A stretch of DNA of 64,000 nucleotides, taken from assembly GCA_027485835.1 (NCBI GenBank), contig JAIXQG010000002.1, forward strand, positions 138,232 to 202,231, in the 5' to 3' direction. Of this stretch, positions 13,932 to 53,154 are shown piece after piece. This DNA comes from Alphaproteobacteria bacterium (GTDB taxonomy: Bacteria > Pseudomonadota > Alphaproteobacteria > UBA2136 > UBA6156). Below the pieces are notes generated by a model. The model worked only from the letters and a program-made list of their open reading frames with translations. It made no database searches and was not told where the DNA came from. The position numbers and the translations under genes are program-made. Within the stretch, counting starts at the first letter, position 1; the number at the start of each line of letters is the position of its first letter.

Positions 13932-13933
13932 AA

Positions 13934-14806: not shown

Positions 14807-14821
14807 AGCAGTATCCTTTCT

Positions 14822-15238: not shown

Positions 15239-15268
15239 GGCTGTATTCCTTAATATCAGTTGGCGGCT

Positions 15269-15919
<651 letters not shown>

Positions 15920-19669: not shown

Positions 19670-19919
19670 GAAGCGTTTCCTCCTTGTGTGCTTACGCTTT
19701 TGCCAGCGCATTGGCACGGTTACGACAAATGCCAAACCCCCTGTTTTGCCAAGGGTTTGGCTTAGACCTGATATTGGCAAACATCTCCAGGTCGCTATCT
19801 TTTTCCTGCCACAGGCATGCATACGCACACGAGGGCTTGGGGGCGATATAGGCGCTGGGGGCCTAGGTGTCAAGCGGAAAACATAGAAAAATGAATGGGG
19901 GTAAGGGATTTTCTTGCGG

Positions 19920-19960
19920 TGGTGGTTTGGGACAAAAAAGAACCTCCCCGTTTGGACCGG
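19920..19960 (-). terminator. rho-independent terminator (cctctccgg-tccaaac-ggggagg + T-run) after the 146-aa hypothetical gene
   Basis: Hairpin followed by ttctttttt on the minus strand, directly after the stop at 19982. Confidence 0.5.
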
Positions 19961-19981
19961 AGAGGTAGTGCGATATTGAGT

Positions 19982-20422
19982 TTAGGCGGTCTGATTGTAA
20001 TGAATGTACAGCAGGGACGACAAATTGTCGCACCACCAACTTCCGATTGCAGAACTCACTTCGACCCTTCTGTTACCCGTAAACATATAGGGATACGGGA
20101 CACTGTCATCCTCCTCCTGAAAGAAGAATGATACCTTCGAAGTCTTGTTGACCGACGCGAGGTAGCTCAGCACGAAGGCATTCAGAGACTCACGTGGAGT
20201 TGGAAGATCGTCAGTCGCATTTTCAGACCCAGCAAGTTCGAGTTCGACGCCGTCGACGAAGATGATTGTATAATCATCCCCACGATATTTCTGTCTCTTG
20301 TCGATAACTTCTATTTTTTTTGCAGCATCCAGAGCTGCAATAAGTTTGTTGCGGTCTGATTCGTTGATCTGAAGGATGGTGCGGATATTGAGAAGGTCGT
20401 CAGCAAACATATCTTTCTCCAT
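19982..20422 (-). CDS. hypothetical acidic protein (146 aa), lower-GC
   Basis: Complete ORF with its own terminator. No recognisable family. AT-richer than surrounding core genes. Confidence 0.45.
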   Translation of the reverse strand: MEKDMFADDLLNIRTILQINESDRNKLIAALDAAKKIEVIDKRQKYRGDDYTIIFVDGVELELAGSENATDDLPTPRESLNAFVLSYLASVNKTSKVSFFFQEEDDSVPYPYMFTGNRRVEVSSAIGSWWCDNLSSLLYIHYNQTA

Positions 20423-20574
20423 TTGTTTTGCTGGTTATTCTGGATACCATCGGCATACCTCACGCGTAATAACAGCCCTTCGGGCCGTACAAACGGTTCA
20501 GATATGTCGATGGCAGAGCCAGTCTACATTCTTATAGCTGCTGGCACATTTTACTTAGCTGACATAAAGAAAAA

Positions 20575-20600
20575 GCCGCCCGAAGGCGACTTTCTCCTCC
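20575..20600 (-). terminator. rho-independent terminator (gtcgcc-ttcg-ggcggc + TTTTT) after the 116-aa hypothetical gene
   Basis: Read directly from sequence on the minus strand. Confidence 0.5.
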
Positions 20601-20615
20601 CCGAAGGGACGTTCG

Positions 20616-20966
20616 TTAAGCTGAGATACCGAGCTTTGCCTTGAAAAAGTTCAAGGCATCGATAGCTTCCTGCAGCGCCCGCTCTGGGCTGAGGCCGAGA
20701 GCGCGGATGTGAACGTCGGTGGAGTGCGCCGCCAGTTCAGCGGCGGCAGCGAGGAAGTCACCACGCGACGCTTGTTCCTGAGCCGCGTACATCGCGGCTT
20801 CAGGGCCGCAATTTGCGGAATCCCAATCCGTCGGTTCGACAGGAGCTGGAATGGCTTTTGTCTTCTTCACCTCATACAGGAAGCGAGCGCGAGCGCCCCC
20901 GCGTACCGGGTAAGAGGTGGCGAAGAACGAAGCGGCAGCGGCAAGATTAACAGCAGTGTTCGACAT
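20616..20966 (-). CDS. hypothetical Ala-rich protein (116 aa)
   Basis: Complete ORF bracketed by a terminator downstream and palindromes upstream. No family recognised. Confidence 0.45.
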   Translation of the reverse strand: MSNTAVNLAAAASFFATSYPVRGGARARFLYEVKKTKAIPAPVEPTDWDSANCGPEAAMYAAQEQASRGDFLAAAAELAAHSTDVHIRALGLSPERALQEAIDALNFFKAKLGISA

Positions 20967-21221
20967 GATTTTGCTCCTATGGCGTTGGTGTCGACAAAAT
21001 GATCAGTCCCTACGGGACAGAAAAACGGCTCAGTACGAGCCAGTTTCCTGTCCCGTACCTAATGGTACTGTAATTCTTTATATACAGCCTCTCCAGCCGG
21101 TTTTGAAGGCGAACTGACAGGCTTTTTTATTCGTTTTATTTCGAGTCTAATTTATTTAAAAACATACAATTAAACCTTATTAAGTATCTACTACATTAGC
21201 TTTACAGCCCTCCTTTCATGG

Positions 21222-21256
21222 TCAAAAAAGGCCCGCCGTTGCTGGCGGGCCTTGTG
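21222..21256 (-). terminator. rho-independent terminator after gcrA (aggcccgcc-agcaa-cggcgggcct + T6)
   Basis: Perfect stem followed by a T-run on the minus strand. Confidence 0.6.
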
Positions 21257-21276
21257 TCGTGATTGTGATTGGTGGT

Positions 21277-21855
21277 TTAGACCATGGGTCGGTAGCGGCT
21301 GAGGCCGCGGTCATGAAGATCCGTGAAGTGACCAATCTTGACCTTGCCATTAGAGGCTTTCAAACGCTCCAAGTGACCGACGCAGATACTTCCACCCTCT
21401 TTAGCGGCTGGGTTGCCGCAGTAGAGAGCCTGTCCGCCCAAGTCAAAGCGGTCATCGCCGGGCATAAGGTACGTTTTGCACTGACCGTCGGCCAGTTCAA
21501 GCAACGTAACCCCCCGACAGGTAAAGCTTGGCTTCGCCTCGTCTTTCTTTGGCTTTCGTGGCGTTTGGCTGCGGGGCACTACCGGTTGCAGCAGGGCGGA
21601 GTATTTGCCTCCCTTCGGACGTTTGGGTTTGGCCGCAGAGTGTGACGACTTGCCTTTTGCCGCAGGCTTTTTGGCAGAACCTGCCGCCCGCTGCTGGGTT
21701 TTGCGTGCCGGAAGCTTGAGACGATACGCCTTACCCACGACGCAATTGACGGATGGCGCCCCTAACTTTTTGGCGATTTCGCTTTTGGAAAGCCCCTCAT
21801 CCCAATACTTTTTCAGATCTTCGACCGCTTCGGCGGTCCATGAGAACTCGGACAT
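21277..21855 (-). CDS. gcrA: GcrA family cell-cycle transcriptional regulator
   Basis: 'MSEFSWTAEAVEDLKKYWDEGLSKSEIAKKLGAPSVNCVVGKAYRLKLPAR' N-terminal domain, a basic linker, and a conserved Cys-containing C-terminal domain. Confidence 0.82.
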   Translation of the reverse strand: MSEFSWTAEAVEDLKKYWDEGLSKSEIAKKLGAPSVNCVVGKAYRLKLPARKTQQRAAGSAKKPAAKGKSSHSAAKPKRPKGGKYSALLQPVVPRSQTPRKPKKDEAKPSFTCRGVTLLELADGQCKTYLMPGDDRFDLGGQALYCGNPAAKEGGSICVGHLERLKASNGKVKIGHFTDLHDRGLSRYRPMV

Positions 21856-21934
21856 GTCTTACTCCTCGTAAAGAGTCATTTAATAGGAGAAACTGGCTGC
21901 GTAGTGAGTGTTTGTAAGATGTATTTGCATAAGG

Positions 21935-21965
21935 TGCAAAAGAAAAGGGGGCTAAAGCCCCCCCT
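21935..21965 (-). terminator. rho-independent terminator (gggggggc-ttta-gccccc + T-run) after the 129-aa membrane-protein gene
   Basis: Read directly from sequence. Confidence 0.5.
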
Positions 21966-21973
21966 TCCCTCAA

Positions 21974-22363
21974 TTAAAATAGAAAACCGCTCACAAATTC
22001 CCAAACGGGCGTAAAAGGCGCCCAAAGAATTTTGATTGTCGCCCATGCGATAAGCAAGGCGCTAAAATGCATAGCTAGTAACATAAAGACACTGCAAATA
22101 TGCACCATTTCAGCCATCACTGCATAAAGCCTGAATGATTCTTCCCTAAAAAGCATCATCAGAGCCAAGAGTATCAGAAGTACTATTAAACAGGCTGAGG
22201 ACTCAATTAACATTGTCCCTCTCTGCCATGCATTTTTCTCAAGAAGTCGGTTCACATTCAGGCATTTGCCTGAGAGCTTATGCTTGCGTTTAAACCCTTT
22301 AGCCACGTTTTTTGCCTTAGAGTTCAGTTGGTTTCTTAGCTCATTTAAGAGTCCTTTTTTCAT
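21974..22363 (-). CDS. hypothetical small membrane protein (129 aa), low-GC
   Basis: Basic N-terminus plus two or three hydrophobic helices. AT-rich. Own terminator. Confidence 0.45.
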   Translation of the reverse strand: MKKGLLNELRNQLNSKAKNVAKGFKRKHKLSGKCLNVNRLLEKNAWQRGTMLIESSACLIVLLILLALMMLFREESFRLYAVMAEMVHICSVFMLLAMHFSALLIAWATIKILWAPFTPVWEFVSGFLF

Positions 22364-22539
22364 GTTGTTTTTTCCTTATGATAGACCCCACGCGCGGCTG
22401 GGGTGTGCGCCGAGAACCGTTCCTCGTATAGATTTCCTTCCGTTTTAGAGGGTTAAAATGATTATAGATTCACGCATTCTAGTTATTAGTATACACAATG
22501 AATACACCAATTCAAGTATACAAATCAGTTTGGTTCCTA

Positions 22540-22572
22540 AAAAAAGGGCCCCGTGGGGCCCCTTCTCGTTGC
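22540..22572 (-). terminator. rho-independent terminator after rpoC (ggggcccc-acg-gggcccttttttt)
   Basis: Hairpin followed by T7 immediately after the rpoC stop. Confidence 0.65.
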
Positions 22573-22578
22573 GGTCTG

Positions 22579-26703
<4,125 letters not shown>

Positions 26704-26718: not shown

Positions 26719-31134
<4,416 letters not shown>

Positions 31135-31386
31135 TCTTCAACACTTGTCTACGTCTAAACAGGTGTTAGCGATTCCTGCCCCTGAAGGAGCCGGAGGGGT
31201 GCTGTGTATTCGTGTACTAGTACAACAGCACGACACCGCGCTAAAATCCGCGGAGATAGACGGTTATTAGGCCTATTGCAACGCCCTGTCAAGCGGCGGT
31301 TTGTGGGATTTTTTTGGTGTATTTTCATCACGCCTTGTGGCAACGTCAAAGTCTTGTAACACCGACCCCCTTGAAAGGAGGTGACC

Positions 31387-31572
31387 ATGCTTTTTCTGCT
31401 AAACTTATTTTCGCCCAATCACTGGGAATGGAAGCCGGAGTTCACGCCTGACACTCCCCTTCATCCGCTCCTAAAGTGGATTGCATGCGCGTTGCTTACC
31501 TATCTCGCCGTCTATCTGGTGTTCCTGATGCAAGCCCCCATCCGTGGCGTTATGAATCTGATTTTCTCCTAA
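31387..31572 (+). CDS. hypothetical small single-TM protein (61 aa)
   Basis: Strong SD (aaggaggtgacc ATG) with a hydrophobic core. Located antisense to the rpoB 5' region. Confidence 0.35.
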   Translation: MLFLLNLFSPNHWEWKPEFTPDTPLHPLLKWIACALLTYLAVYLVFLMQAPIRGVMNLIFS

Positions 31573-31589
31573 CACACGAGGATCATAAC

Positions 31590-31757
31590 ATGTCCCACGA
31601 TATTCCTCCCGACGTGCCGGATAGATATACTATCCGCCTGCCCTTCCTTGGCTGTTTTCGGTCACCGCTACCGGCCAATGTATGGATCTTAGCCGCCATT
31701 TGCGGCGCCACCGTGCTGTATGGCTATAGCGCCATGATGCGCGGCGATTTTTTCTAA
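31590..31757 (+). CDS. hypothetical small single-TM protein (55 aa)
   Basis: SD (gagga) 7 nt upstream of the ATG. Hydrophobic helix. A rho-independent terminator follows. Confidence 0.35.
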   Translation: MSHDIPPDVPDRYTIRLPFLGCFRSPLPANVWILAAICGATVLYGYSAMMRGDFF

Positions 31758-31767
31758 AGTAGCGCGT

Positions 31768-31795
31768 ACGGCCCGAAAGGGCCGCTTTTTTTGGC
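31768..31795 (+). terminator. rho-independent terminator (cggccc-gaaa-gggccg + T7)
   Basis: Read directly from sequence. Confidence 0.55.
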
Positions 31796-31797
31796 CG

Positions 31798-32106
31798 TTA
31801 AACCGCCGCGTTTGGCTTGGCCCCGCGCTTGATGATGGAGAGATACCCGCCATTACCGCGACTGAGAAAGCGCGCGACGCGGGTGACGGTGGCAAGGGCG
31901 ATTCCGGTACGCGAAGCTACGTCCCGCTGGCTAAGACCCTGATGCAGCAAGCGTGCGGCATGCCAGCGGTCGGCAAAGGCGGCAATTTCGGTCGGCGTGC
32001 AGAGGTCGGCCAAAAAGGCTTTTACCTCTTCCGGAGTTTCTAACATCAGAAATGCGGCATAGAGGTCGGATTCCGACGGCTGATGGTGGGCGAGGTCTTT
32101 TTTCAT
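31798..32106 (-). CDS. YerC/YecD-family TrpR-like DNA-binding protein
   Basis: 102 aa with 'LCTPTEIAAFADRWHAARLL.QGLSQRDVASRTGIALATVTRVARFL', a trp-repressor-like HTH. It sits between rplL and rpoB. Confidence 0.7.
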   Translation of the reverse strand: MKKDLAHHQPSESDLYAAFLMLETPEEVKAFLADLCTPTEIAAFADRWHAARLLHQGLSQRDVASRTGIALATVTRVARFLSRGNGGYLSIIKRGAKPNAAV

Positions 32107-32149
32107 TTCTTATATAGTAGCAGATTGACGAAGATGGGATAGTGTATTA

Positions 32150-32171
32150 ATGTAATATTACGTTATTACAT
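32150..32171. promoter_or_regulatory. perfect 8-bp inverted repeat ATGTAATA-N6-TATTACAT in the divergent yerC / small-ORF intergenic region (candidate operator)
   Basis: Read directly from sequence. A TTGACG -35-like hexamer lies at 32129. Confidence 0.4.
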
Positions 32172-32187
32172 GCGGAGATCTGTAAAA

Positions 32188-32358
32188 ATGCATCTATTCT
32201 TTTCCACCCCCCTCAAACCTATTACCTCTAAAGAAGAAGCCGTGCGTCGCGTCAAAGCCATCATGAAGCGCAAGGAGGCGGCCGAGATTTGCGACGTTCC
32301 GGTCACCGACGAGCCTTTGCGCGAGCTTCCCAGTCACCTTCGTGACCGCGGCCTTTAA
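32188..32358 (+). CDS. hypothetical small protein (56 aa)
   Basis: SD ggaga 9 nt upstream. A terminator lies at 32376-32412. Divergent from yerC. Confidence 0.3.
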   Translation: MHLFFSTPLKPITSKEEAVRRVKAIMKRKEAAEICDVPVTDEPLRELPSHLRDRGL

Positions 32359-32375
32359 GCGCCCCTCCCCTTATT

Positions 32376-32412
32376 ACCCCGCAAGAGCTTTCAGCTTCTG
32401 CGGGGTTTTTCT
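32376..32412 (+). terminator. rho-independent terminator (ccccgcaagagctttcagcttctgcgggg + ttttt)
   Basis: Read directly from sequence. Confidence 0.45.
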
Positions 32413-32434
32413 ATCTAAGCCAATCTAACCCTAT

Positions 32435-32462
32435 AAAAAAACGGGCCAGAGGCCCGTTTTCC
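32435..32462 (-). terminator. rho-independent terminator after rplL (aacgggcc-tct-ggcccgtt + T7)
   Basis: Perfect stem plus T-run on the minus strand directly after the rplL stop. Confidence 0.65.
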
Positions 32463-32477
32463 CGAAACCGGTTAGAA

Positions 32478-32843
32478 CTACTTGAGTTCAACCTTGGCGC
32501 CAGCTGCTTCCAGCTTGGCCTTGATTTCTTCAGCGTCCTTCTTGGCAACGCCTTCCTTAACGACTTGCGGAGCGCCTTCAACGAGGTCCTTGGCTTCCTT
32601 GAGGCCCAGACCGGTCAGCTCACGAACAGCCTTGATCACGTCGATCTTCTTGTCGCCAGCGGCGGCCAGGGTCACGGTGAACTCGGTTTGCTCTTCAGCA
32701 GCCGGGCCAGCAGCAGCCATAACAGCTACCGGAGCAGCGGCGGATACGCCCCACTTTTCTTCCAGCATTTTGCTCAGTTCAGCAGCTTCCATAACGGTCA
32801 GGGTGCTGAGGGTTTCTACGATTTGTTGCAGGTTTGCAGACAT
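32478..32843 (-). CDS. rplL: 50S ribosomal protein L7/L12
   Basis: 121 aa with the conserved bL12 CTD '[38 protein letters not shown]'. Confidence 0.97.
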
Positions 32844-32866
32844 TTTAGTTTCCTTTAATTAAGAGA

Positions 32867-33361
32867 TTAGGCCGCAGCGGCTTCCGAGGTCTTCTCGGAG
32901 TACGCCTTGGTAACACGGGCCAGCTGGCCACCCGGCGCTTGCAGCACACCAATAATCTTGGCGCGAGCTTCGTCGAGGGTCGGAAGTTGGCTGATGGTCT
33001 TCACTTCGGCGGCGCTGAGCACCTTACCGTTCATGGAGCCGCCAACGATGACCAGCTTGTTGTTGGTGTCAGCGAACTTCTGGCTGATACGGGACGGTGC
33101 GATTTCGTCCGCGCTGAATGCGAGGACGGTCGGGCCGACCATAATGCTGGAGAGTTCTTCAAAGGCGGTGCCCTTAAATGCCAGCTTTGCCAGACGGTTT
33201 TTAGCCACCTGTACTTCGCCACCGGCTTCGCGCATCTGGCGACGCAGTTGGCTCATTTCCTTCACGGTCAGACCACGGTAGTGGGCCACCACGAGGGACT
33301 TGGCCGATGCGATACGCTCGGACAGGCTGCCGATAAAGGCTTGTTTCTGGGTACGATCCAT
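32867..33361 (-). CDS. rplJ: 50S ribosomal protein L10
   Basis: 164 aa uL10. Confidence 0.95.
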   Translation of the reverse strand: MDRTQKQAFIGSLSERIASAKSLVVAHYRGLTVKEMSQLRRQMREAGGEVQVAKNRLAKLAFKGTAFEELSSIMVGPTVLAFSADEIAPSRISQKFADTNNKLVIVGGSMNGKVLSAAEVKTISQLPTLDEARAKIIGVLQAPGGQLARVTKAYSEKTSEAAAA

Positions 33362-33590
33362 AGAGGATTCCCTTCCACTTGGTTACTTTGCCTACGCACC
33401 CCATGTGCGCATGCACACCAGTCTGAATTTCTGTGGAAACATCGCAGCCCCCTAAACAGGAGTGCGGATATTGCCCCTCGGTTGGAAATTAAGCCCCGCA
33501 ATTCGTTCAACAAATTACGTACCATGGGCGCCAACGGTCTTCAGGTGTTGGTGGCTCTATACGGGCCCACACCTGATATGTAAAGCAAAA
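33362..33590 (-). promoter_or_regulatory. rplJ 5' leader (probable L10(L12)4 autoregulatory leader and promoter)
   Basis: 228-nt untranslated region between a terminator and rplJ. Assigned by position only. Confidence 0.3.
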
Positions 33591-33596
33591 AAAGCA

Positions 33597-33626
33597 CCCG
33601 CATACGCTGCGGGTGCCCTTCTCTAC
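33597..33626 (-). terminator. rho-independent terminator after the PCP-like gene (gcacccgcatacgctgcgggtgc + T7)
   Basis: Read directly from sequence on the minus strand. Confidence 0.5.
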
Positions 33627-33637
33627 TTATATATAGC

Positions 33638-35242
33638 TTAATCCAGCTTGGCTTTTAAAGTCGCCTTGCGCAGCATGCGGGCCAGCGGAGGCACAACTTT
33701 GGCCAAACGGTCTGCCAACTGGCCCAGCAACTGGCGGCGGCTCAGCACAAACTGCATGTTCAGCACCACACCCAGCAGTGGGGCACCTACCAGCAGCAAG
33801 CTATCGGTGGCGCGCTTAAGCTCGGACTGTGTGGTGACACCCGCTTGCGCCAGCAGCAGCGTGCGAGCACTTGCAGAAGCGACAGCAACAGCATCCACAT
33901 TCCCGCGGTTCACGGCGGCCAGCGGGCTACCATCCACAATCACGATATCGGCCATGTCGGTCAGCATATCGAACAGTACCGGCAAACCACCCGCCTCGCC
34001 CAGCTTGCTCAGGGTTTCCGGATGGCGCGGTGCGGCCAGAAGCTTCATATTCTCGTTACCGGGCATGGGTTGCAAAGCATCCCAGCCGCCTTTTTTGGGT
34101 TTGGCGCCCTTCGGCAATTCCCAGTTACCATCGCCCAAGCCCAGCCATTGGCTCAGCATACGGTCACGCAGGTTCATATCGACCAGAATCACGGTTTTAC
34201 CTTGCTCAGATGTCCGTTCCGCCAACAGCAGGGCCAGCGTGCTGCTGCCTTCCGAGCCCTTCGGCCCCAAAACCACTAACGGCCCACGCAGGTTGCGCAC
34301 CAGAGAGCGGTGCAGGCGGCCGAGCTCACTGAACTCCGACGGGCGCAGCTTTTTGCCACCGGCCATCACATGCAGACCGCGCGGGGTAATATTCAGTTTG
34401 CCCAGCCACGGCAGGGTACCCACAACTTGCATATCACTGGCCTTAGTTGCGTCATCTTCACCTTCAATCACCGCACGGTTGGCAAAGGGCAGCTTTTGCA
34501 GCAAGCCGAACAGCAGGCCACCGAGCAGACCCGCCAGAATCATGTTCGCTACAACACGGGCAGTACCTTGCAGCGGCTCACTCATCGTCGCGGTTTCGGC
34601 AAACCATACCAGCGCTTGGCTCCCGTGGCGGCCAAAGGCTAAATTCACACGGCGCAGGTCGCTTTGCAGCTGCACGGTGTCGCCCTGCAATTTTTCGCTA
34701 CGGGCGTTCAATTCCAAGCGGGTCGCTTCGTCGGCACCATCGGAGGTGGCCAAACGACCGACGATTTCTTTCAGCTCCTGCTGGTTTTGCAGAATCATCT
34801 GCTCCAAGCGCATGCGCTCCGGTGCCAGCAAGGCCTGAATAAAGTTATAGGCCAGTGCATCCGTCATCTGCTCCAAACCTTCCGGCTTGGTGCTGCGGTA
34901 GCTGATGGTCATCAAATTGTTGTTAATGACGCGCAGCGAGACCTTATCGGCCTCAATCTTACGGTGTGCATCAGCACCTGTATCTGCTAGCAATTGCGGG
35001 TTGACCAAAATCTGGCGTAAAGCTTCACCCTGACCAGGCGCGCTAATACTCTGTAACAGTGGCGATTTCGCTTGATCCGACTGCACTTGCAACAAGGCGG
35101 TAGCCTCAAATGTGGGCGGCACCTGCACGCTGTAAATTGCCGCCAGCAGAGTGAACACCACTACAGGCACACCTATTTTGACGCGCACGCGCCACATTTC
35201 TGCCAATGTATTCAAGATGATATTCATAGAGCGCGCTTTCAT
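33638..35242 (-). CDS. polysaccharide co-polymerase (Wzz/GumC/ExoP-like) protein with degenerate C-terminal BY-kinase-like ATPase domain
   Basis: 534 aa with N-terminal TM + periplasmic coiled-coil + second TM topology. C-terminal P-loop-like 'VVLGPKGSEGSSTLA' lacks the Walker-A Lys (GKS->GSS). 'VILVDMNLRD' is a degenerate Walker A'. 'DIVIVDGSP' is Walker-B-like. Confidence 0.65.
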   Translation of the reverse strand: MKARSMNIILNTLAEMWRVRVKIGVPVVVFTLLAAIYSVQVPPTFEATALLQVQSDQAKSPLLQSISAPGQGEALRQILVNPQLLADTGADAHRKIEADKVSLRVINNNLMTISYRSTKPEGLEQMTDALAYNFIQALLAPERMRLEQMILQNQQELKEIVGRLATSDGADEATRLELNARSEKLQGDTVQLQSDLRRVNLAFGRHGSQALVWFAETATMSEPLQGTARVVANMILAGLLGGLLFGLLQKLPFANRAVIEGEDDATKASDMQVVGTLPWLGKLNITPRGLHVMAGGKKLRPSEFSELGRLHRSLVRNLRGPLVVLGPKGSEGSSTLALLLAERTSEQGKTVILVDMNLRDRMLSQWLGLGDGNWELPKGAKPKKGGWDALQPMPGNENMKLLAAPRHPETLSKLGEAGGLPVLFDMLTDMADIVIVDGSPLAAVNRGNVDAVAVASASARTLLLAQAGVTTQSELKRATDSLLLVGAPLLGVVLNMQFVLSRRQLLGQLADRLAKVVPPLARMLRKATLKAKLD

Positions 35243-35488
35243 TGCGTTGTGCCTCGTGGGGCTTCTTTTTTACCGAGGGCCAAAGCCCACCTTTGTTGGT
35301 TGGATATTATAGAGAGGTGCACAAGTCTGGCAATGGTGCTGCCAGACATATCGGCAACCACGATGCACAACACCTTCATACGCTTGACACTTCCGCAACA
35401 TCAGCCTATATCGCCCTCACTACACCCGCGCGTTTAGGCGTTTAGCGGTCTGTGTAGGAGTTATATCAACGAACGGAGAGTATTAGCC

Positions 35489-35920
35489 ATGGCTAAGAAA
35501 ATCGCCGGCTTCGTCAAGCTGCAAGTGCCAGCTGGCGCCGCCAACCCGGCCCCGCCCGTAGGTCCCGCTCTGGGCCAAAAGGGTTTGAACATTATGGAAT
35601 TCTGCAAGGCCTTCAACGCTGCCACCCAGCCGCCGAAGTTTGCCGCAGGCACCCCGATTCCCGTCATCATCACCGCATACGCCGACCGTACCTTCACCTT
35701 CGAGCTGAAGACCCCGCCGGCCAGCTGGTACCTGATGCAAGCCGCCAGCATTAAAAAGGGCGCCAAAACCCCGAACGTGCCGATCGGCCAAGTTAAGCGC
35801 GCTGAAGTGAAGAAAATTGCTGAAGCCAAGATGGTCGACCTCAACGCCAACTCTGTTGAGCAAGCCATGAAGATTATTGAAGGCAGCGCCCGCTCTATGG
35901 GCCTGACCGTAGTAGACTAA
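35489..35920 (+). CDS. rplK: 50S ribosomal protein L11
   Basis: 143 aa with '[43 protein letters not shown]', uL11. Confidence 0.97.
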
Positions 35921-35934
35921 GGAAGGACACGACC

Positions 35935-36642
35935 ATGGCTACTAAGAAGTCCACTAAACTCACCTCCGCCAAGCCGAAAAAGGTTTTCCCGGAGTTTGAC
36001 CGCCTGAAGGCCTACAGCCTTGATGAAGCGCTGAAGCTGCTGGCTACCATGCCGGCTGCCAAGTTCGACGAATCCGTCGACGTTGCGCTGAACCTGGGCG
36101 TAGACCCCAAGTATAACGACCAAATGGTACGTGGCGTTGTGTCGCTGCCCCACGGCAACGGTAAAACCGTCCGCGTGGCCGTGTTCGCCAAGGGCGCCGC
36201 TGCCGATGAAGCCCGTGCCGCCGGTGCCGACGTTGTGGGCCTGGAAGATCTGATTGCTCAGGTTGAAAAGGGCGACATCAACTTCGACCGTGTAATCGCG
36301 ACCCCCGACTGCATGCCGCAGCTTGGTAAAATCGCCCGTATCCTCGGCCCGAAAGGCATGATGCCGAACCCAAAGCTGGGCACCGTAACCCCCAACGTGG
36401 CCAAGGCCGTGAAGGACGTTAAGGGCGGGATGATCGAGTTCAAGGTTGAAAAAGCCGGTATCATCCACGCCGGTGTCGGCAAGCGCAGCTTCTCCTCCGA
36501 CAAGCTGGCTGCCAACATCAAGGCCTTGGTAGACGCTGTGAAGGCCGCCAAGCCCTCCGGCGCCAAGAGCAACTACCTGCTGAAGCTGGCGATTACCGCC
36601 ACTCAAGCCCCTGCCATCAAGGTAGACTTGAGCAGCCTGTAA
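35935..36642 (+). CDS. rplA: 50S ribosomal protein L1
   Basis: 235 aa uL1. Confidence 0.97.
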   Translation: MATKKSTKLTSAKPKKVFPEFDRLKAYSLDEALKLLATMPAAKFDESVDVALNLGVDPKYNDQMVRGVVSLPHGNGKTVRVAVFAKGAAADEARAAGADVVGLEDLIAQVEKGDINFDRVIATPDCMPQLGKIARILGPKGMMPNPKLGTVTPNVAKAVKDVKGGMIEFKVEKAGIIHAGVGKRSFSSDKLAANIKALVDAVKAAKPSGAKSNYLLKLAITATQAPAIKVDLSSL

Positions 36643-36652
36643 GGTTCGCTTA

Positions 36653-36690
36653 CTCAAAACCCCGCTTAGGCGGGGTTTTTTGTTAAGTAA
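36653..36690 (+). terminator. rho-independent terminator after rplA (aaaccccgc-ttag-gcggggtttttt)
   Basis: Read directly from sequence. Confidence 0.65.
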
Positions 36691-36738
36691 TCATTCATTA
36701 AAGCCGCCTAAGTTGGCGGCTTTATAAAGCAATTTGAA

Positions 36739-37080
36739 TTAACCGCCCGCCTTTTCCGAAAACATCTCACGCTTGTCTTCGGCGTCGAGGTCAGCCATTT
36801 CGGCAGCCTCAGGCAGCGGGCCCTTGCTTTCGGAAATATTGGGCCAAATGGCGCTATAGCGCTGGTTGAGATTGGCCCAGTGTAGCTCGTTCGGGCCAAG
36901 CTCTTCATCCGACTTAATCGCTTCAATCGGGCATTCCGGCTCGCATACTCCGCAGTCAATGCATTCGTCCGGGTTAATTACCAGCATATTCTCGCCTTCA
37001 TAAAAGCAACTGACCGGGCAAACTTCCACGCAATCGGTATAGCGGCATTTAATGCATTTTCCGGTAACGACGAACGGCAT
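36739..37080 (-). CDS. fdxA: 7Fe ferredoxin (Azotobacter FdxA-type, [3Fe-4S][4Fe-4S])
   Basis: Start at [51 protein letters not shown], preceded by an aaggagag SD. Two Cys clusters. Confidence 0.88.
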
Positions 37081-37211
37081 GATTCTCTCCTTGAATTTCG
37101 GCACATGGTTACCCTCATTCATGCCGCTTGGCAACAGGGGGCACGCTTGCTTGCAGCCTCATATGTGTGAACGCGGGACTTGCCTGCCATTTCGGGGTAA
37201 CTTACCACAAA

Positions 37212-38288
37212 ATGAAACAAAAGCGCCTGACCAGGTCTGTTTTGGCTATGCCGCACATGTTAGCGGCTTTAGCGGTGCTTTTGTGCGTGCCTGCCGCGCC
37301 AGTCTCGGCTTCCAGCGAGCTCTTTGCACCCACCGACGTCACGGTACGCTATAATCCGATTGGGTATGTGAAGAATTTTCTATTCCCCCCAAAGGCAACC
37401 GAGCAGGCCGAAGCCGCGTTACAGACCTATGCCACGATCGAACCGGCCTCCGGCGGTGCAGAACCCAAAGCCGAAGGACATGGCGAAGCCAAAGCGGAGG
37501 GTCATGGTACGTCCAAAGGTGAAGGTGGCGGCCATGGCGAACCCAAAGCTACCGGTAAAAGCGAAGGCAAGAAGAGCTTTAGTGGTAAAACCATTGGCGC
37601 TATACCCGAGCTGCCGACCGTGACTATCGGTGGCAAGTCAGTCATCAGCAAAGCCGAGCAAACTGCGAACGAACTCAATGATACCACTCCGGAAGGGATT
37701 CGCGAACCCATGATGTTACAGCATCTGGACCGGCGCTTTTCCGTGACACCCTATGCCCACAGCCCTAAGCGGGGCGCCAATGGCGCACAAATTACGGCGA
37801 TTGTCTTTACCGACTTTTCCTGTGGTCAGTGCATGCCGGAACTGACCAAGATTGATGCCGCCTTGGCAGGAGTTTCTAATACCGTGCAAACCATTCACAT
37901 CCATGCACCGATGGTGCGGTTTCAGGACACGAACATGCCGGCCTTTTACGGCAAGGTGGCGGCGCGGGGTGGCGTGTTTTGGAAATACCGTGACATGCTG
38001 CTGGCTAAGCCCACAGTTGAGGCCAACGTGTTGTTTGATAACCTGATTGCCAGCGGCATGGATGTGGCCCAAGCCCGCAGCCTGATGCTGACCGACGCAC
38101 GACGCTTTTACCGCGAGTTGGATGCCGACAGCCTGCTCGCGCGCAGCTTTGGCATCACCAACCCGCCAGTTGTGTTTGTAAATGGCATCCGTGTTGGATT
38201 TGGGGGCATCCCGTTAGAAAAATTGAAAGATGTTCTGGATTACCTGCACAAGCGTATTGAACGCGGCATGAATGAACCGCCGAAGTAA
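37212..38288 (+). CDS. secreted DsbA-like thiol:disulfide oxidoreductase with N-terminal (A/E)-K-A-E-G-H-G repeat region
   Basis: Signal peptide (MKQKRLTRSVLAMPHMLAALAVLLCVPAAPVSA). His/Gly repeats 'EPKAEGHGEAKAEGHGTSKGEGGGHGEPKATGKSEG'. C-terminal thioredoxin fold with CxxC 'FSCGQCM'. Confidence 0.68.
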   Translation: MKQKRLTRSVLAMPHMLAALAVLLCVPAAPVSASSELFAPTDVTVRYNPIGYVKNFLFPPKATEQAEAALQTYATIEPASGGAEPKAEGHGEAKAEGHGTSKGEGGGHGEPKATGKSEGKKSFSGKTIGAIPELPTVTIGGKSVISKAEQTANELNDTTPEGIREPMMLQHLDRRFSVTPYAHSPKRGANGAQITAIVFTDFSCGQCMPELTKIDAALAGVSNTVQTIHIHAPMVRFQDTNMPAFYGKVAARGGVFWKYRDMLLAKPTVEANVLFDNLIASGMDVAQARSLMLTDARRFYRELDADSLLARSFGITNPPVVFVNGIRVGFGGIPLEKLKDVLDYLHKRIERGMNEPPK

Positions 38289-38303
38289 CGCGAGGACAGA
38301 CCC

Positions 38304-40322
38304 ATGAGCACCTCCCTTCGCCACGCCATCAACAGTTTTAGCGAGCAATTGCAGCACCGCCAGCAAGAACGGCGCACCCAACGCATTGCCGCCACGCGTG
38401 CGGAGCAAGAAGACTCCACGACCATGGCGTCGATTCCGCTAAGCCCGGATGTAAGGGCCTTCTTCACCCATATCGCCCAAAGCGTTCAACGAGACCGCCA
38501 GCGTTACCATTTAGCTATCGCTATGGGGGTTGAGAATAGCGAACAGAACGCTGCCGCCAACGCTGTGCCAGGAGCGTTGCCAGATGAATCTCCGTTCAGC
38601 ATTGTCGAAGCTCCTGAGAATCAGGATGCCGCCGCGGTTGCACTGGCCCATGTTTCTCCCGGGCCACATGTGCTGTTGCTCTGGGATGAGTGGATGCGCA
38701 ACGAGCGCCTGATACCAAGTGTGGAAGACAGCCAAAGCATGGGCCGCAGCCCCTGCGGAGCCCTGCTGGTGGCAGAACTGAACAAACTGACGCAAGATAC
38801 TACCGCCAAACCTGCCATGGCGATGAGCCTGATTGGCAAAACCAAGCAATCGGTACAAGCGTTTCTGGATGGTCGCACCAATGACGCCGTAACCTTGCTG
38901 AAAAACGCCCTGCAGAGCGACCCCCATAACCACAGCATTCTGATGTCGCTCTCGCAAATCTCCTACTGGCTGGCGACCAAGGGTGTGCAAAACGTATTGC
39001 CGGAAGCCCGTGATTTTGCCCAACGCAGTACCATTTACAGCGAGAAACAAACTCCCTCGCAAATGGCGTTTTATCAATATACGGCGATTGTGACCGAAAG
39101 CGCCTTCGGTCCCGAGCGTACACTCGAATGGCTGCGTGACAGCGGCATGCTGAACACCGATAATTTCTCGGATAACGGAGACTCCCTGCTTGCCGAACGC
39201 GGTCTTTACCTGCGCGCTTGGTACCTGCTTTCCCAAGTACCTGTTGAGCTCTGGCATGAAGCGGAATTCCGGGCCTTGCTCAACCTCGTTACCAAAGTGG
39301 TTGGTGGGGCCACAGTGTATCTTGCATGGTTCCGTACCCCCCTGCTTACCGCAGCCAGCCTAGGGAAAGATATCCCGATTCTGGAAGAAATCGAGAGACT
39401 GGTACATAGCGCATACCGCCTGCATAGCAACCACTATACAGCCTTTCAACAACTTAGTCCGCAAAGTGGCGATAAACCGTGGTTGCTACGGGTACGCTTC
39501 TTAAGTGCTGTCAAGGCGATCATGACAGTGCCGGCTTTCGATCAGGCCGCCCTGCATTTTTCTCTCGACGGCCAGAGCTGGGAGGAGAATATGACTCCCG
39601 ACCCGGAACTGCGCGCCACCACCGGCTTGCGTGAGTTAACCTATTGGCGCCTGTGGGCACTGGTGCTTACGCCGTATAAGGATATCCGGCAACCCTACCT
39701 GATGCCGGCCGAGGAAACCGCCAGTGACCTCAGCCTACTTGCCAGTTGCGAAGAGCTTTTAACAACCCTTGCCACCACCGAACGCAACCTGATTAAAGCC
39801 CACCTGTGGGATGATTTAAAACCTTGGCTGGTGCGCTGGCAGTTAGAGCACCTGTTAGCCGCCAGCACCGGCAGTAACAAGCCCCGCAGCCGTTTTGCGC
39901 CCAGCCTGCCGCCCTACACCCATTTGTACCGTGCTTGGCAAGACCCGCCCATTTCCTCACTTTTGCCGAGCGAAATTATTGCCGAGAATGCCCGACGCGG
40001 TGCGTTTGCCAGTTTCTTTGAAATTACCGCGGCACTGGAAGGCGCCAACCGCCTGATTAACGACCCTGTGCACGGGCTGGTTGCCAGCCAGAAACGCGCT
40101 TTAGCCGCCGCCAACCGTTATAACCCGAAAAAATTCAAAACCGTCGCGCAGGAATTTGGCAGTAGCGGCGGCAGCGGGCTCCTCATGCTGCTGATGCCCG
40201 TGGGCTTGCTGGGGCTGATGGCGGCGGTGTTCACCTTCAGTGCCAACTGGGGCCAAGCACTGGGGCTTATGCTCGCGCTGGGGGGAGTGGCGGGTGTTGT
40301 GGCACTCAATCTCAAGAAATAA
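38304..40322 (+). CDS. hypothetical 672-aa protein, TPR-like alpha-helical, with C-terminal double-TM anchor
   Basis: The start codon lies 15 nt after the dsbA-like stop, so an operon is likely. No recognised catalytic motifs. The C-terminus 'LLMLLMPVGLLGLMAAVFTFSANWGQALGLMLALGGVAGVVAL' is hydrophobic. Confidence 0.55.
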   Translation: MSTSLRHAINSFSEQLQHRQQERRTQRIAATRAEQEDSTTMASIPLSPDVRAFFTHIAQSVQRDRQRYHLAIAMGVENSEQNAAANAVPGALPDESPFSIVEAPENQDAAAVALAHVSPGPHVLLLWDEWMRNERLIPSVEDSQSMGRSPCGALLVAELNKLTQDTTAKPAMAMSLIGKTKQSVQAFLDGRTNDAVTLLKNALQSDPHNHSILMSLSQISYWLATKGVQNVLPEARDFAQRSTIYSEKQTPSQMAFYQYTAIVTESAFGPERTLEWLRDSGMLNTDNFSDNGDSLLAERGLYLRAWYLLSQVPVELWHEAEFRALLNLVTKVVGGATVYLAWFRTPLLTAASLGKDIPILEEIERLVHSAYRLHSNHYTAFQQLSPQSGDKPWLLRVRFLSAVKAIMTVPAFDQAALHFSLDGQSWEENMTPDPELRATTGLRELTYWRLWALVLTPYKDIRQPYLMPAEETASDLSLLASCEELLTTLATTERNLIKAHLWDDLKPWLVRWQLEHLLAASTGSNKPRSRFAPSLPPYTHLYRAWQDPPISSLLPSEIIAENARRGAFASFFEITAALEGANRLINDPVHGLVASQKRALAAANRYNPKKFKTVAQEFGSSGGSGLLMLLMPVGLLGLMAAVFTFSANWGQALGLMLALGGVAGVVALNLKK

Positions 40323-42269: not shown

Positions 42270-44336
42270 ATGGCATTTGTGCTTCCATCGGGTTTGACTG
42301 ACCGCATCGCGGGTATTTCTACCGTGCGCTGGCTTATGCTTTTGGCCATATGGGGCATCGCGGTATTCTTATGGGGCACTTTTGGCGCGTGGACCGAGAA
42401 ACGCGGACAAGATGCCGAGCTTCGTTTAGTAACCCCCTATGCCGAACGTGTGGGAGCGTGGCTCACCCAGCAAACCGATATTCTGGACAGCCTGCAAACC
42501 GATACGCGTCTGGCCGAAGGTGCCAGCTTGCCTGCGGGCGTGGAAAGCTTGCCGGTGCAGCGTGTGCTATATGAATTCGCGTACCTCAACCGCATACCGG
42601 ACGTTTATATTCTCGACCTGTTGCAAGGTAAAAACGGCCGCACGGCAGGCGCTGTTGCGCTACCAGAAACCACCTTGAAGCGCTTTGACAGCCTGCCGGA
42701 TCGCGCCGATACGCTGATGCTCGGGCTGGGGTTAGACCGTGCGCAATTGCTGATGCTGCGGCGTGTGAACGCCCCCCTGCCCCAGAAGCTTTATGCGGCT
42801 GTGCCTGTACGGTTCAGCACCCTTGCCAATGCCGTGCCGACTCTGCCGGAGACCTTTCAGGAGCGGACTTCAAGCCTGATTTTCCCCCATACCGAGGGGT
42901 GGGCCCGCTGGAATATGAAAGGGCCGCAGTTAAACTTGATTGAGGAAGAGACCGAAGGTTTAGGCTCTGACGAGGTTGTGCACATCACCACCGGTTCGCG
43001 CCAAACCACCTATGTGCCACTCGGGGGATTACCGGCTGTTGTTCTGGCGGTGGAAGGCCCGCGTGCGCTTACCTCCACTGCCCTATTACCGCGGCTGATG
43101 GTGTTTATCTGGGCCGTCACCATGAGCTTGATGGTATTATGGCAAGAGCCCGGTTTTCAAAAACTACTGGCACAAAGCACCGCCCCCGTTAAGCCCCTTC
43201 TCGGCAAACTTGCACCGTTGGGGGCCCGCATGAAAGGGCTTGGCCGGCTTTTGCCCGTTGACCAGATTGCCCGCGCCTGGCGCGATGCGCGCGGTACGGC
43301 CCCCTTGGTAGAAGGACCCGGCGAGCTTGATGCCAGCGCCTTCCGTTCCTCACCACGGCGTGCATCATCGGGTAAATCTCCGCGAAAGCCTATGTTAAGT
43401 GCACCCGCGCCGGCCGAGTTGGCAACGGCCGGCCCCGGCGCGTTACCTAAACTGGAGCGCCGCAACCGCCGCCGCGGCAGTGCCTTGGCGGCAACTCCTT
43501 CTCGTCCCCACAGCCAAAACGCCAAACCGGCGTGGGTTTCTCCGGAAAAGAAAGCTCCCAAACCTATCTCCTCTCAATCGAGCGACTCTCAGCCCGCGAT
43601 TGATGAGGAAGACTTGCTGGAAGTGGTGAAGGACTGCCTGCGCCAAAAACGGGTTAAGTTGCTGTACCAGCCTGTATATCGCGCCGCCGACAACATGCCG
43701 ATGATCCACGAAGTGTTCGCGCGCCTGGTACGACGCGATGGCAGCCTGATCTCGCCAGGCGACTTTTTGCCAATTGTGTTGAAAAACAAGCTTTCGCTCG
43801 AGCTGGACCTGATGGTGCTGCGCAAAGTGGTGCAGGAGCATTTTGGCCAAGGCCGCGAGCCGCTAACTCCCCTTGCCGTCAATATTTCCAGCAACAGCCT
43901 TGATGGTATTGCCTACCTGCAGGAAATGACCAGCCAAGGCCCACGCGTGCTGCGCCGGATGGGTTTTGAAGTAAGTAGCCAAGAGATGATACGTGACCCC
44001 AAAGCTCTGAAACTTCTCAAAGATTTGCAAAAGCATGGTGGCAATCTGGCGGTCGATTACTTTGGCGGTGGAGAAGCCATGCTGGATGCCAGCAAATCGC
44101 TCGGTTTCAACTACGTGAAGCTCGATTCCGCCAAGTTCATCGAAACGGATGAGGGCAAGAAGAACCTCATCAAGCTGTGCCACTATGCCAATTCCATCGG
44201 GCTACCGATTATTCTCGAAAAAATCGGGCATCGGGATACGGAGGAGTTCGGGCGTCGTGCGGGGGCGCAATTCCTGCAGGGTTATGCCCTGAAAAGCCCG
44301 GATGAAATGCTAACGCTGACGCAATTGGCATCGTAA
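42270..44336 (+). CDS. membrane-anchored sensor protein with C-terminal degenerate EAL domain
   Basis: N-terminal TM + periplasmic region + second TM. The EAL-like C-terminus carries 'EVFAR', 'DYFGGG' instead of DDFGTG, 'EKIG' instead of EGVE, and 'KLD'. Confidence 0.78.
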   Translation: MAFVLPSGLTDRIAGISTVRWLMLLAIWGIAVFLWGTFGAWTEKRGQDAELRLVTPYAERVGAWLTQQTDILDSLQTDTRLAEGASLPAGVESLPVQRVLYEFAYLNRIPDVYILDLLQGKNGRTAGAVALPETTLKRFDSLPDRADTLMLGLGLDRAQLLMLRRVNAPLPQKLYAAVPVRFSTLANAVPTLPETFQERTSSLIFPHTEGWARWNMKGPQLNLIEEETEGLGSDEVVHITTGSRQTTYVPLGGLPAVVLAVEGPRALTSTALLPRLMVFIWAVTMSLMVLWQEPGFQKLLAQSTAPVKPLLGKLAPLGARMKGLGRLLPVDQIARAWRDARGTAPLVEGPGELDASAFRSSPRRASSGKSPRKPMLSAPAPAELATAGPGALPKLERRNRRRGSALAATPSRPHSQNAKPAWVSPEKKAPKPISSQSSDSQPAIDEEDLLEVVKDCLRQKRVKLLYQPVYRAADNMPMIHEVFARLVRRDGSLISPGDFLPIVLKNKLSLELDLMVLRKVVQEHFGQGREPLTPLAVNISSNSLDGIAYLQEMTSQGPRVLRRMGFEVSSQEMIRDPKALKLLKDLQKHGGNLAVDYFGGGEAMLDASKSLGFNYVKLDSAKFIETDEGKKNLIKLCHYANSIGLPIILEKIGHRDTEEFGRRAGAQFLQGYALKSPDEMLTLTQLAS

Positions 44337-44405
44337 CCACCGGCTACCGGAGCGAAGCGTTATTTTGGCAATGACAAAGCCCCTTCCTAAGTATACGATT
44401 AACCC

Positions 44406-45281
44406 ATGACTGACTTGCAGAAGGTTGACCCCGTCGCCGAATTTACCCGCCAGACGCCGCTGGATTTGCGGCTGGTGATGGCGTTGGCTGGCGAGCGCGA
44501 CCTGAATGCGCGCGAGCAGCAGATTGTCGATAAGCTTCAGCAAGAGCGTGGCGAAGGCTTGTTCTCCGACATGCTATATGCCCTCACCCGCAAGAGCTTC
44601 CCCAGCCGCCAAGCTAAGCTGCTGTGGGCGGAAATTGGCGACCATAGAAAGAAGCTGGAAGGCATTTTAAGCCGCGACCCCGGTGTGGCGCTGGCGGCGC
44701 ACGATTATCTGGTGAACGTGAGTGGCCTCCTCAAAACTGCCGGACTGATTGAAGAGCAGAAGTTTCAGGCGCTGGCCACCGTGGCCAGCCGCGACGGTCT
44801 GACCGGCCTTTATGACAAAACCACCTTTGCCCGCCTGCTGGAAGAAGAGCTGGCGCGCCAAGCCCGCTTTGGCCGACCCGTGACGCTGGTGATGATCGAC
44901 ATCGACCACTTTAAGCAACTGAACGACACCCACGGCCACGCCGATGGCGACGTGGTGCTGGCACAGGTAGCCGAGCTGATTAAGCTGCAAGCCCGTAGCA
45001 CCGATAGTTGCGGCCGCTTTGGCGGCGAAGAGTTTGCCGTGGTGCTGCCGGAAGTGGACACCCACGCCGGTACGCTGCTGGCAGAACGTATCCGTATGGG
45101 AGTGGAAAAGGCTTTTATCGGTACACCTTACAGCGTGACCGTGAGCATCGGGATTGCCACGGGCAATAGCGGTGTGAAGGCTGATGATCTTGTGCGTGCC
45201 GCCGACGCCGCGCTGTATGAAGCCAAGCGTGGTGGACGCAATTGCGTGCGGGTGGCGAAGGAAATTGTGACGACTGTCTAA
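44406..45281 (+). CDS. GGDEF-domain diguanylate cyclase
   Basis: Active-site 'GGEEF' with an I-site 'RSTD' five residues upstream. N-terminal ~120-aa domain of unknown function. Confidence 0.88.
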   Translation: MTDLQKVDPVAEFTRQTPLDLRLVMALAGERDLNAREQQIVDKLQQERGEGLFSDMLYALTRKSFPSRQAKLLWAEIGDHRKKLEGILSRDPGVALAAHDYLVNVSGLLKTAGLIEEQKFQALATVASRDGLTGLYDKTTFARLLEEELARQARFGRPVTLVMIDIDHFKQLNDTHGHADGDVVLAQVAELIKLQARSTDSCGRFGGEEFAVVLPEVDTHAGTLLAERIRMGVEKAFIGTPYSVTVSIGIATGNSGVKADDLVRAADAALYEAKRGGRNCVRVAKEIVTTV

Positions 45282-53037: not shown

Positions 53038-53092
53038 ATCTTCATATTACCATGATTCAGAATTCGTTACGCCCATTTTACCGTAAGAAATT

Positions 53093-53127
53093 TGACATTT
53101 CCTATAGACATATGTATACACGAATCA
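53093..53127 (+). promoter_or_regulatory. candidate promoter TTGACA-N17-TATACA upstream of exonuclease paralog 2
   Basis: Read directly from sequence in the AT-rich divergent intergenic region. Confidence 0.3.
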
Positions 53128-53154
53128 CACGAGGCCTACAGAGGGAATACCACT

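Follow-up and report, generated by a model that had tools for sequence, protein, structure and literature searches.

Bacterial tyrosine (BY) pseudokinases have been described for EcpK, experimentally, and for HfsB, and the class was named only in 2025 (Blöcher et al. 2025, PMC12004946). In EcpK/EpsV of Myxococcus xanthus and HfsB/HfsA of Caulobacter crescentus, a stand-alone BY pseudokinase goes with a kinase-less polysaccharide co-polymerase (PCP) of the PCP-2 class (PMC12004946). Proteins in which a PCP-2 and a BY pseudokinase are fused come from Cuthbertson et al. (2009); as relayed in passages of PMC12004946, these are SMc01795 of Sinorhizobium meliloti, Mlr8439 of Mesorhizobium japonicum, BCETI_6000729 of Brucella ceti and VV1_2305 of Vibrio vulnificus. 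For Wzc, the ring forms with unphosphorylated tyrosines and phosphorylation drives its dissociation (PMC12004946). Here we describe a gene in a stretch of 64,000 nucleotides from an uncultured alphaproteobacterium (GCA_027485835.1, contig JAIXQG010000002.1), hereafter the window. The gene lies on the minus strand at 33638–35242, where the longest open reading frame (ORF) encodes 534 amino acids, and its product joins a PCP-2a-like part to a BY-pseudokinase domain in one chain. With a probability of roughly 0.6, we read it as a polysaccharide co-polymerase of PCP-2a architecture with a pseudokinase domain, acting as a phosphorylation-independent scaffold that serves export partners encoded elsewhere.

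The probable start codon is Met6 at 35227, giving a protein of 529 amino acids: the orthologues begin at the Met6 position, and in a 93%-identical relative (locus L001) the first ATG of the window corresponds to ACG. A Pfam search showed that residues 13–86 (34985–35206) match the Wzz domain PF02706 with 34.2 bits (gathering threshold 25.5), and that the C-terminal half has weak CbiA/MipZ/ParA matches of 13–16 bits, below the cut-offs and covering about 45 residues. The NCBIfam BY-kinase models TIGR01007, PRK09841, PRK11519, EpsG and pepcterm_TyrKin matched residues ~320–498. Scores for the BY-kinase models TIGR01007, PRK11519, PRK09841, TIGR03029 and TIGR03018 were 20.8–43 bits against cut-offs of 108–1248; TIGR01007 reached 43 bits against its cut-off of 108. 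The best solved relatives by sequence were the BceF kinase domain (6z0p, E 2e-9) and Wzc, and a family-profile search of structures added CapA/CapB chimeras, Etk and VpsO. An AlphaFold2 (AF2) model built from 25 orthologues, with a mean predicted local distance difference test score of 83.7, showed in order a first transmembrane helix, an alpha/beta base that bears a helical hairpin, a second transmembrane helix, a Rossmann-like domain and two C-terminal helices. Foldseek matched the model to full-length Wzc (9r62 and 7nhr, with E ~1e-20) as well as to BY-kinase domains solved in isolation, with a template-modelling score of ~0.7 for the kinase-domain chains; the octameric Wzc structures among the matches are K540M mutants. 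An earlier annotation made from the sequence alone (the original prediction) had called the protein GumC/ExoP/Wzc-like and proposed structure prediction as a check; this identity was confirmed by the Wzz match above threshold, the BY-kinase structure matches and the agreement of the AF2 model with full-length Wzc.

All parts of the protein are given here with minus-strand coordinates. Transmembrane helix 1 (residues ~20–40, 35123–35185) lies within the Wzz match and coincides with an AF2 helix and a hydropathy peak. It is followed by a short periplasmic domain (residues 41–225, 34568–35122), assigned from AF2 and the alignment to the Wzc periplasmic region, which consists of the alpha/beta base and a hairpin of helices 123–165 and 172–202. 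Transmembrane helix 2 (residues 226–250, 34493–34567) was assigned from AF2, the orthologue alignment and hydropathy, with P223, R229 and G241 conserved. The juxtamembrane linker (34283–34492) was defined by profile alignment to CapA1–CapB chimeras and BceF and by its invariant columns; its segment TLPWLGK (34397–34417) aligns with the C-terminal CapA fragment that is fused to CapB in the crystallised chimera. The protein ends in a conserved Arg/Lys/Leu-rich helical tail, RRQLLGQLADRL...KAKLD (33641–33739), which has no tyrosine and replaces the Tyr-rich cluster. The traits of a PCP-2a are present: two transmembrane helices around a mostly helical periplasmic domain, an N-terminal Wzz/PCP motif and a cytoplasmic P-loop domain of BY-kinase fold fused C-terminally to the PCP. 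The definition of PCP-1 (Wzz chain-length regulators) does not match, as there is a cytoplasmic domain of 284 residues. The automatic JGI name of the orthologues is 'Mrp family chromosome partitioning ATPase', and a MinD/ParA/Mrp ATPase was considered and rejected: the family profiles stayed below cut-off, and the P-loop has no conserved lysine, as opposed to the deviant Walker A motif KGGxGK[ST]. The gene product is predicted by the model to be an inner-membrane protein with the fold and topology of PCP-2a (Wzc/ExoP).

The P-loop reads GPKGSEGSST (34238–34267). HMMER alignments placed it opposite GPTPGIGKSF of BceF and GAGKST of CapB, so that the position of the Walker-A lysine is Ser333. This position is S, T, A, V or G, and never K, in all 36 orthologues. 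In the Walker A' region, VILVDMNLRDR (34160–34192), the alignments placed VDMNLRDR opposite IDADMRR; the first aspartate (D355) is kept, and the second is replaced by Asn357. The original prediction had reported both a missing Walker-A lysine (GSEGSST) and a degenerate Walker A' (DMNLRD). Both claims hold: realignment with profiles and the structure model, including alignment to the BY-kinase domains of BceF, CapB and Wzc, did not restore the lysine, and Asn357 is invariant in the orthologues. Walker B agrees with hhhhD (IVIVD437GSP) and is followed by an invariant NRGNVDA loop (together 33890–33946), which is family-specific and represents a 4-residue insertion relative to canonical BY-kinases. 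The ExxRxxR motif is kept as ELGRLHR (34307–34327), with E306 and R309 invariant and R312 present in at least 90% of the family. The 284-residue cytoplasmic part contains no tyrosine; cytoplasmic tyrosines are likewise absent from 12 of 25 orthologues, and no tyrosine position is conserved across the family. Without a cytoplasmic tyrosine, tyrosine autophosphorylation and the canonical Wzc cycle of phosphorylation and dephosphorylation are impossible.

Four hallmarks of an active BY-kinase are missing, namely the Walker A lysine, the Walker A' motif hhhhDxDxR, the Tyr-rich C-terminal cluster and a score above the curated family cut-offs. The features tested from the definition of a BY pseudokinase in PMC12004946 were all found, including physical coupling to a PCP-2, here within one ORF. 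Judged by its motifs, the built-in tyrosine-kinase domain is a predicted BY pseudokinase that cannot act as a kinase, and the labels 'tyrosine autokinase' and 'Mrp family ATPase' should not be used for the protein. The original prediction had spoken of a probable pseudokinase scaffold rather than an autokinase; the pseudokinase part is upheld by the motifs, the lack of tyrosines, purifying selection and the concept put forward in PMC12004946, and the scaffold role stays a suggestion.

The orthologues form a tight family of about 36 proteins with 43–93% identity, all from uncultured alphaproteobacterial metagenome-assembled genomes (MAGs), and a bit-score gap from 373 to 68 separates them from canonical BY-kinases. 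The residues G329, E331, G332, D355, N357, L358, R361, D437 and P440 are invariant in the family, as is the inserted loop N445-R446-G-N448-x-D450-A451; LGDGNWELP, with two invariant tryptophans, is another family feature that canonical BY-kinases lack. The ratio of non-synonymous to synonymous substitution rates (dN/dS) against the closest relative was 0.040, with 0.058 for the C-terminal domain. Against two of three more distant relatives it was 0.13–0.15, and against L003 it was 0.34; the range 0.04–0.15 covers the less saturated comparisons. The C-terminal domain was at least as constrained as the N-terminal one in three of four comparisons. The gene is functional, strongly constrained and well conserved, and the catalytic losses are fixed across the family.

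A profile search of 1.84 billion representatives yielded more full-length orthologues together with split versions, in which a PCP half of ~315–325 amino acids and a pseudokinase half of ~237–251 amino acids are encoded side by side. For signature counts, 181 relatives were aligned to the family hidden Markov model. The result showed that 108 of them have no Walker-A lysine together with an asparagine in Walker A', that 64 have lysine with aspartate, and that 9 are mixed. At least three tyrosines in the last 30 residues were found in none of 112 Lys-less proteins, compared to 25 of 69 canonical ones. Loss of the lysine, the change of Asp to Asn and the missing tyrosine tail go together, suggesting that these substitutions define a coherent pseudokinase subfamily with a signature of its own, and no curated model among the NCBIfam models examined covers it. 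One stand-alone Lys-less relative, P0173 (CP038255.1, a 3.8-Mb genome), is encoded directly after a gene for a 701-residue Poly_export/SLBB outer-membrane polysaccharide export (OPX) protein, in a locus that further carries Wzz, GT4, GT2, Bac_transf, STAS and sigma-54 regulator genes. The position of P0173 in a true exopolysaccharide (EPS) locus ties the subfamily to polysaccharide export. We take this locus, with its OPX gene and sigma-54 regulator, to resemble the Vibrio syp locus and SypD. HfsB, SypD or another named relative was not found among the matches listed for a profile search with the Lys-less domains.

The full-length relative P0127 (534 amino acids) has kept the Walker-A lysine (EGKT) together with an Asn-type Walker A' (DLNLK), an NRQN loop and no tyrosine tail; on this combination of motifs it may represent a step in the evolution from kinase to pseudokinase. 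In the marine locus L009 (TARA, 8442–10714), the gene is split into a 315-residue PCP half and a 237-residue pseudokinase half, ~610 bp apart with no convincing ORF between them, and the break falls right after the juxtamembrane motif LPYLG; many pairs of this kind are present in the representative library. A metagenome scan added two loci only, and a tblastn search of plasmids returned nothing beyond weak matches to canonical BY-kinases.

The Pfam scan took most ORFs of the window, the others being ribosomal or housekeeping genes assigned by visual reading of the translations, and showed no glycosyltransferase, Poly_export/OPX, Wzx/Wzy or phosphotyrosine phosphatase domain among them. The claim of the original prediction that glycosyltransferase, Wza and Wzx/Wzy neighbours are lacking is therefore correct for the window. 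Flanks of up to 10 kb a side were compared for 14 orthologous loci, several of whose contigs end sooner. The genomic association of a PCP-2a with OPX (Wza), Wzx/Wzy, glycosyltransferase and phosphatase genes was seen neither in the window nor in these loci; in L004, an epimerase and a weak Wzy_C match lie ~9.5 kb from the gene. Genes for an EAL-domain protein (688 amino acids) and a GGDEF diguanylate cyclase (291 amino acids) adjoin at 42270–45281 on the plus strand, 7–10 kb from the PCP gene, and the pair is conserved in the same syntenic block of relatives. A regulatory link between cyclic di-GMP and an envelope polysaccharide is conceivable.

The gene is flanked by ribosomal protein operons. 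Downstream of it on the same strand (32478–33361) are rplJ (32867–33361) and rplL (32478–32843), which are neighbours only through an inversion in the lineage of the window. Divergent upstream on the plus strand (35489–36642) are rplK (35489–35920) and rplA (35935–36642), the only conserved neighbours within the clade. In L002, L003, L008, L013 and L016, leftward rpoB, rplL, rplJ, rplA and rplK are followed by the gene in the rightward direction, and on the longer contigs (L002, L003 and L008) then by leftward fdx and rightward genes for a DsbA-like and a ~670-residue protein. Taking the canonical rplKAJL-rpoBC order of related genomes as reference, the three-gene block rplA-rplK-gene is inverted (window 33585–36740) only in the window and in the 93%-identical relative L001. 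The left breakpoint lies just past the terminator of the PCP gene, and no convincing inverted repeats were found at the breakpoints. The inversion, which on this distribution appears recent, alone accounts for a position 'between rplJ and inverted rplKA'. The original prediction had noted this position, which is correct for the window; as a conserved trait it fails, being confined to the window and L001, and it is the divergent pairing with rplK-rplA that is conserved. This pairing was found in 13 of 13 clade loci, directly adjacent in 12 and with a methyl-accepting chemotaxis protein gene in between in L004. It persists whether nuo genes, a SpoU methylase gene or others come after rplA, and also where the downstream side differs, and it reaches the 37%-identical orthologue in L011. 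More distant orthologues (27–34% identity, fused or split) are divergent from the pyruvate kinase gene (pyk) instead, suggesting that the rplK pairing is a syntenic feature at the level of the clade. Comparison of the 13 clade loci gave no evidence of a functional basis for the pairing, and the two promoters are distinct.

An intrinsic terminator follows the gene (33583–33628, minus strand), with a 9-bp GC stem, GCACCCGCA/TGCGGGTGC, and then T7. It was missed by a consensus terminator scanner and is supported by folding (-27.8 kcal/mol, z -5.3), and it precedes the promoter and leader of rplJ. A promoter-like site, TTGCCA-16-TATAAT (35306–35333, minus strand; 11/12 matches), lies 64 nt upstream of the gene and is conserved in closer relatives. 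The rplK-rplA promoter, TTGACA-17-TATATC (35384–35412, plus strand), whose TTGAC box is invariant across seven loci, is separate from it, ~50 nt away. The ~230 nt that precede rplJ show conservation with the spacer between rplA and rplJ in relatives, indicating that this region carries rplJ's own promoter and leader. Cotranscription with rplJL-rpoBC was considered and is ruled out by the strong terminator past the stop codon and the conserved rplJ promoter and leader. With its terminator and promoter-like site, the gene forms a transcription unit of its own. An Rfam search of the window gave nothing at the gathering threshold and one sub-threshold match, on the terminator hairpin; the models for L1/L11 and L10 leaders did not match at the rplK and rplJ leaders. 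The rplK leader keeps a conserved CCCTCACTAC...GTAGGAGTT across equivalent spacers. The genes secE-nusG usually precede rplK; they are absent there in 13 of 13 clade loci, and the divergent PCP gene is found instead (window 35243–35488; L001–L016).

How might such a protein work? In the preferred reading, that of a phosphorylation-independent scaffold, the pseudokinase domains would still assemble into a Wzc-type ring, as suggested by the retained ExxRxxR motif, P-loop scaffold and Walker B and by the CapA-like linker segment. By analogy with the proposals for EcpK/EpsV and HfsB/HfsA, the ring would hold the transmembrane and periplasmic parts together as an oligomer without phosphorylation. 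The Wzy/Wzx/OPX partners would be encoded elsewhere in the genome, which is the weakest link of the explanation. The invariant E331, N357, D437, N445, R446 and N448 would line the former active site and form a retained non-catalytic pocket for a ligand or partner; that it holds a nucleotide without turnover or a partner peptide is speculation. Several points weigh against this reading. No polysaccharide genes were identified in the ~33 kb to one side of the gene and the ~29 kb to the other, nor, apart from L004, in the flanks of the 14 orthologous loci. The periplasmic domain, at ~185 amino acids, is much shorter than the aligned region of Wzc. An oligomer and a scaffold function would still be inferences, and nucleotides may or may not be bound without the lysine.

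The same lack of EPS linkage, which is stable across 27–93% identity in the available flanks, suggests a different use of the protein: the PCP/pseudokinase fold could have been co-opted outside Wzx/Wzy-dependent export, where it would serve the envelope as a scaffold or sensor or, in the manner of Wzz, set the chain length of a different glycan such as O-antigen. Its expression may follow that of the L11-L1 operon, with which it shares a divergent control region. The short periplasmic domain, the family-specific invariants (the NRGNxDA loop and LGDGNWELP with its two tryptophans) and the constancy of the rplK pairing, although both outer flanks have repeatedly been rearranged, are consistent with it. 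However, for Wzz-type proteins an unlinked PCP gene is nothing unusual, the rplK synteny may be simply inherited given that outgroup orthologues pair with pyk, the two promoters are separate, and the Lys-less P0173 does sit in an EPS locus, so that we regard this as possible but not probable. A bolder form, which we consider doubtful, is that the orthologue group, and perhaps the whole Lys-less/Asn subfamily of more than 100 sequence clusters, is a P-loop module re-purposed around an alternative pocket (E331, N357, D437 and N445-R446-x-N448), here independent of Wzx/Wzy export, as a growth-coupled envelope scaffold beside the L11-L1 operon. Conservation clustered at the former active site, with the P-loop glycines, Ser334, D355 and D437 invariant, and the combination of EGKT with DLNLK in full-length P0127 could also point to an active enzyme with a non-canonical site, in which a relocated basic residue (the invariant R446, or K349) replaces the Walker-A lysine for ATP hydrolysis or phosphorylation in trans. 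This is very unlikely: the lysine position is variable and no alternative P-loop lysine is conserved, the second Walker A' aspartate is invariantly Asn, and there is no tyrosine acceptor. Canonical kinases have a basic residue aligned with K349 as well, so that K349 offers nothing over and above their Walker-A lysine. Finally, loss of catalytic residues and of EPS neighbours would be expected if the gene were left over from a vanished EPS locus and on its way to becoming a pseudogene. This explanation is effectively refuted: at least 36 orthologues have an uninterrupted reading frame, the substituted residues are invariant, a promoter-like site and a terminator belong to the gene itself, and the dN/dS values are those given above, with the C-terminal domain constrained at least as much as the N-terminal one in most comparisons.

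Other features of the window were recorded. On the plus strand at 37128–40322 are genes for a DsbA-like periplasmic protein with a CGQC motif and a EGHGEAKAEGHG-type repeat region, and then for a 672-residue protein with two C-terminal transmembrane helices and no Pfam domain beyond a sub-threshold TPR match. Matches to both follow fdx in the same order in L002, L003, L008, L009, L011 and L015 (the last partly covered), and the 672-residue protein is 38% identical over ~500 amino acids to its L009 counterpart; a 552-residue neighbour in L010 is unrelated to it. A functional module of the PCP gene with fdx and these two genes was considered and is not supported, as they are part of an extended block of syntenic housekeeping genes (L33, xthA, EAL, GGDEF, recJ). 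The junction of rplL and rpoB, normally tight, is occupied by a variable island, which in the window measures 1.3 kb (31135–32477) and includes a TrpR-family gene (31798–32106, minus strand). In L003 (41–6840) it holds eight extra ORFs of 130–211 amino acids, three of them weakly similar to one another, and the three N-termini inspected were all signal-peptide-like. L008 (4400–6925) has two such ORFs and TrpR, and the L001 counterpart is at 12753–15273. Between rpoC and rpsJ (19349–22579) there is no str operon (rpsL-rpsG-fusA-tuf); a gene for the cell-cycle regulator GcrA (21277–21855, minus strand) and three small ORFs without Pfam match are found instead. This lineage has its ribosomal supercluster broken up. 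RpoB (1471 amino acids; 26719–31134, minus strand) has a Lys/Ala/Glu-rich low-complexity insertion at about residues 270–330. Two RNase_T-family exonuclease paralogues (52018–52626 and 53092–53835, both plus strand) lie within 52018–53835, with a gene for a small Cys-rich putative lipoprotein between them on the opposite strand (52627–53037).

How a co-polymerase functions without a phosphorylation cycle is an open question on which this family bears, as a natural Wzc-like protein that is fused, Lys-less and Tyr-less and keeps the P-loop scaffold and ExxRxxR. It is also an example of a PCP unlinked to polysaccharide genes in the flanks compared. The signature found in more than 100 clusters (S/T/A/V in place of K, DxN in place of DxD, and an extra loop rich in Asn) could serve automatic annotation of pseudokinases, replacing 'tyrosine autokinase' or 'Mrp ATPase' labels. 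Current views are not overturned, and the value of the family lies in annotation and as a comparative model.

Compared with canonical PCP-2a BY-kinases (Wzc and Etk of Escherichia coli, BceF of Burkholderia, ExoP of S. meliloti), the protein shares architecture, fold, Wzz motif, ExxRxxR, Walker B and the P-loop GxxGxEG, but it differs in having no Walker-A lysine, DxN in place of DxD, no cytoplasmic tyrosine and the four-residue NRGN insertion after Walker B; unlike wzc, its gene has no wza or wzb neighbours. Stand-alone Lys-less relatives of ~235 amino acids, such as P0173, share with the family EG[VTSA][ST], the Walker A' asparagine, an asparagine after Walker B, the lack of a tyrosine tail and a basic C-terminal helix, whereas they are only ~25–30% identical, are separate polypeptides and lie inside a complete cluster of glycosyltransferase, phosphoglycosyltransferase, OPX and Wzz genes. 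With EcpK/EpsV and HfsB/HfsA, the family would share the proposed role of a phosphorylation-independent PCP scaffold, and it too has split versions. However, EcpK has none of the three Walker motifs and is without several secondary-structure elements (PMC12004946), whereas P-loop scaffold, first Walker A' aspartate, Walker B and ExxRxxR are all retained in the window protein; and EcpK is encoded in eps gene clusters and HfsAB belongs to the holdfast Wzx/Wzy pathway, whereas the window gene has no polysaccharide genes nearby. The fused variants of Cuthbertson et al. (2009), as described in passages of PMC12004946, likewise combine in one polypeptide a transmembrane and periplasmic PCP with a BY-kinase fold devoid of catalytic residues and tyrosine tail. 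Likened to them by description, the window family differs in being found only in uncultured alphaproteobacterial MAGs, in having no polysaccharide linkage and in its pairing with rplK-rplA. The idea of a fused PCP/BY pseudokinase was thus already published in 2009 and discussed in 2025, and the window protein is an oddly placed addition to a known kind.

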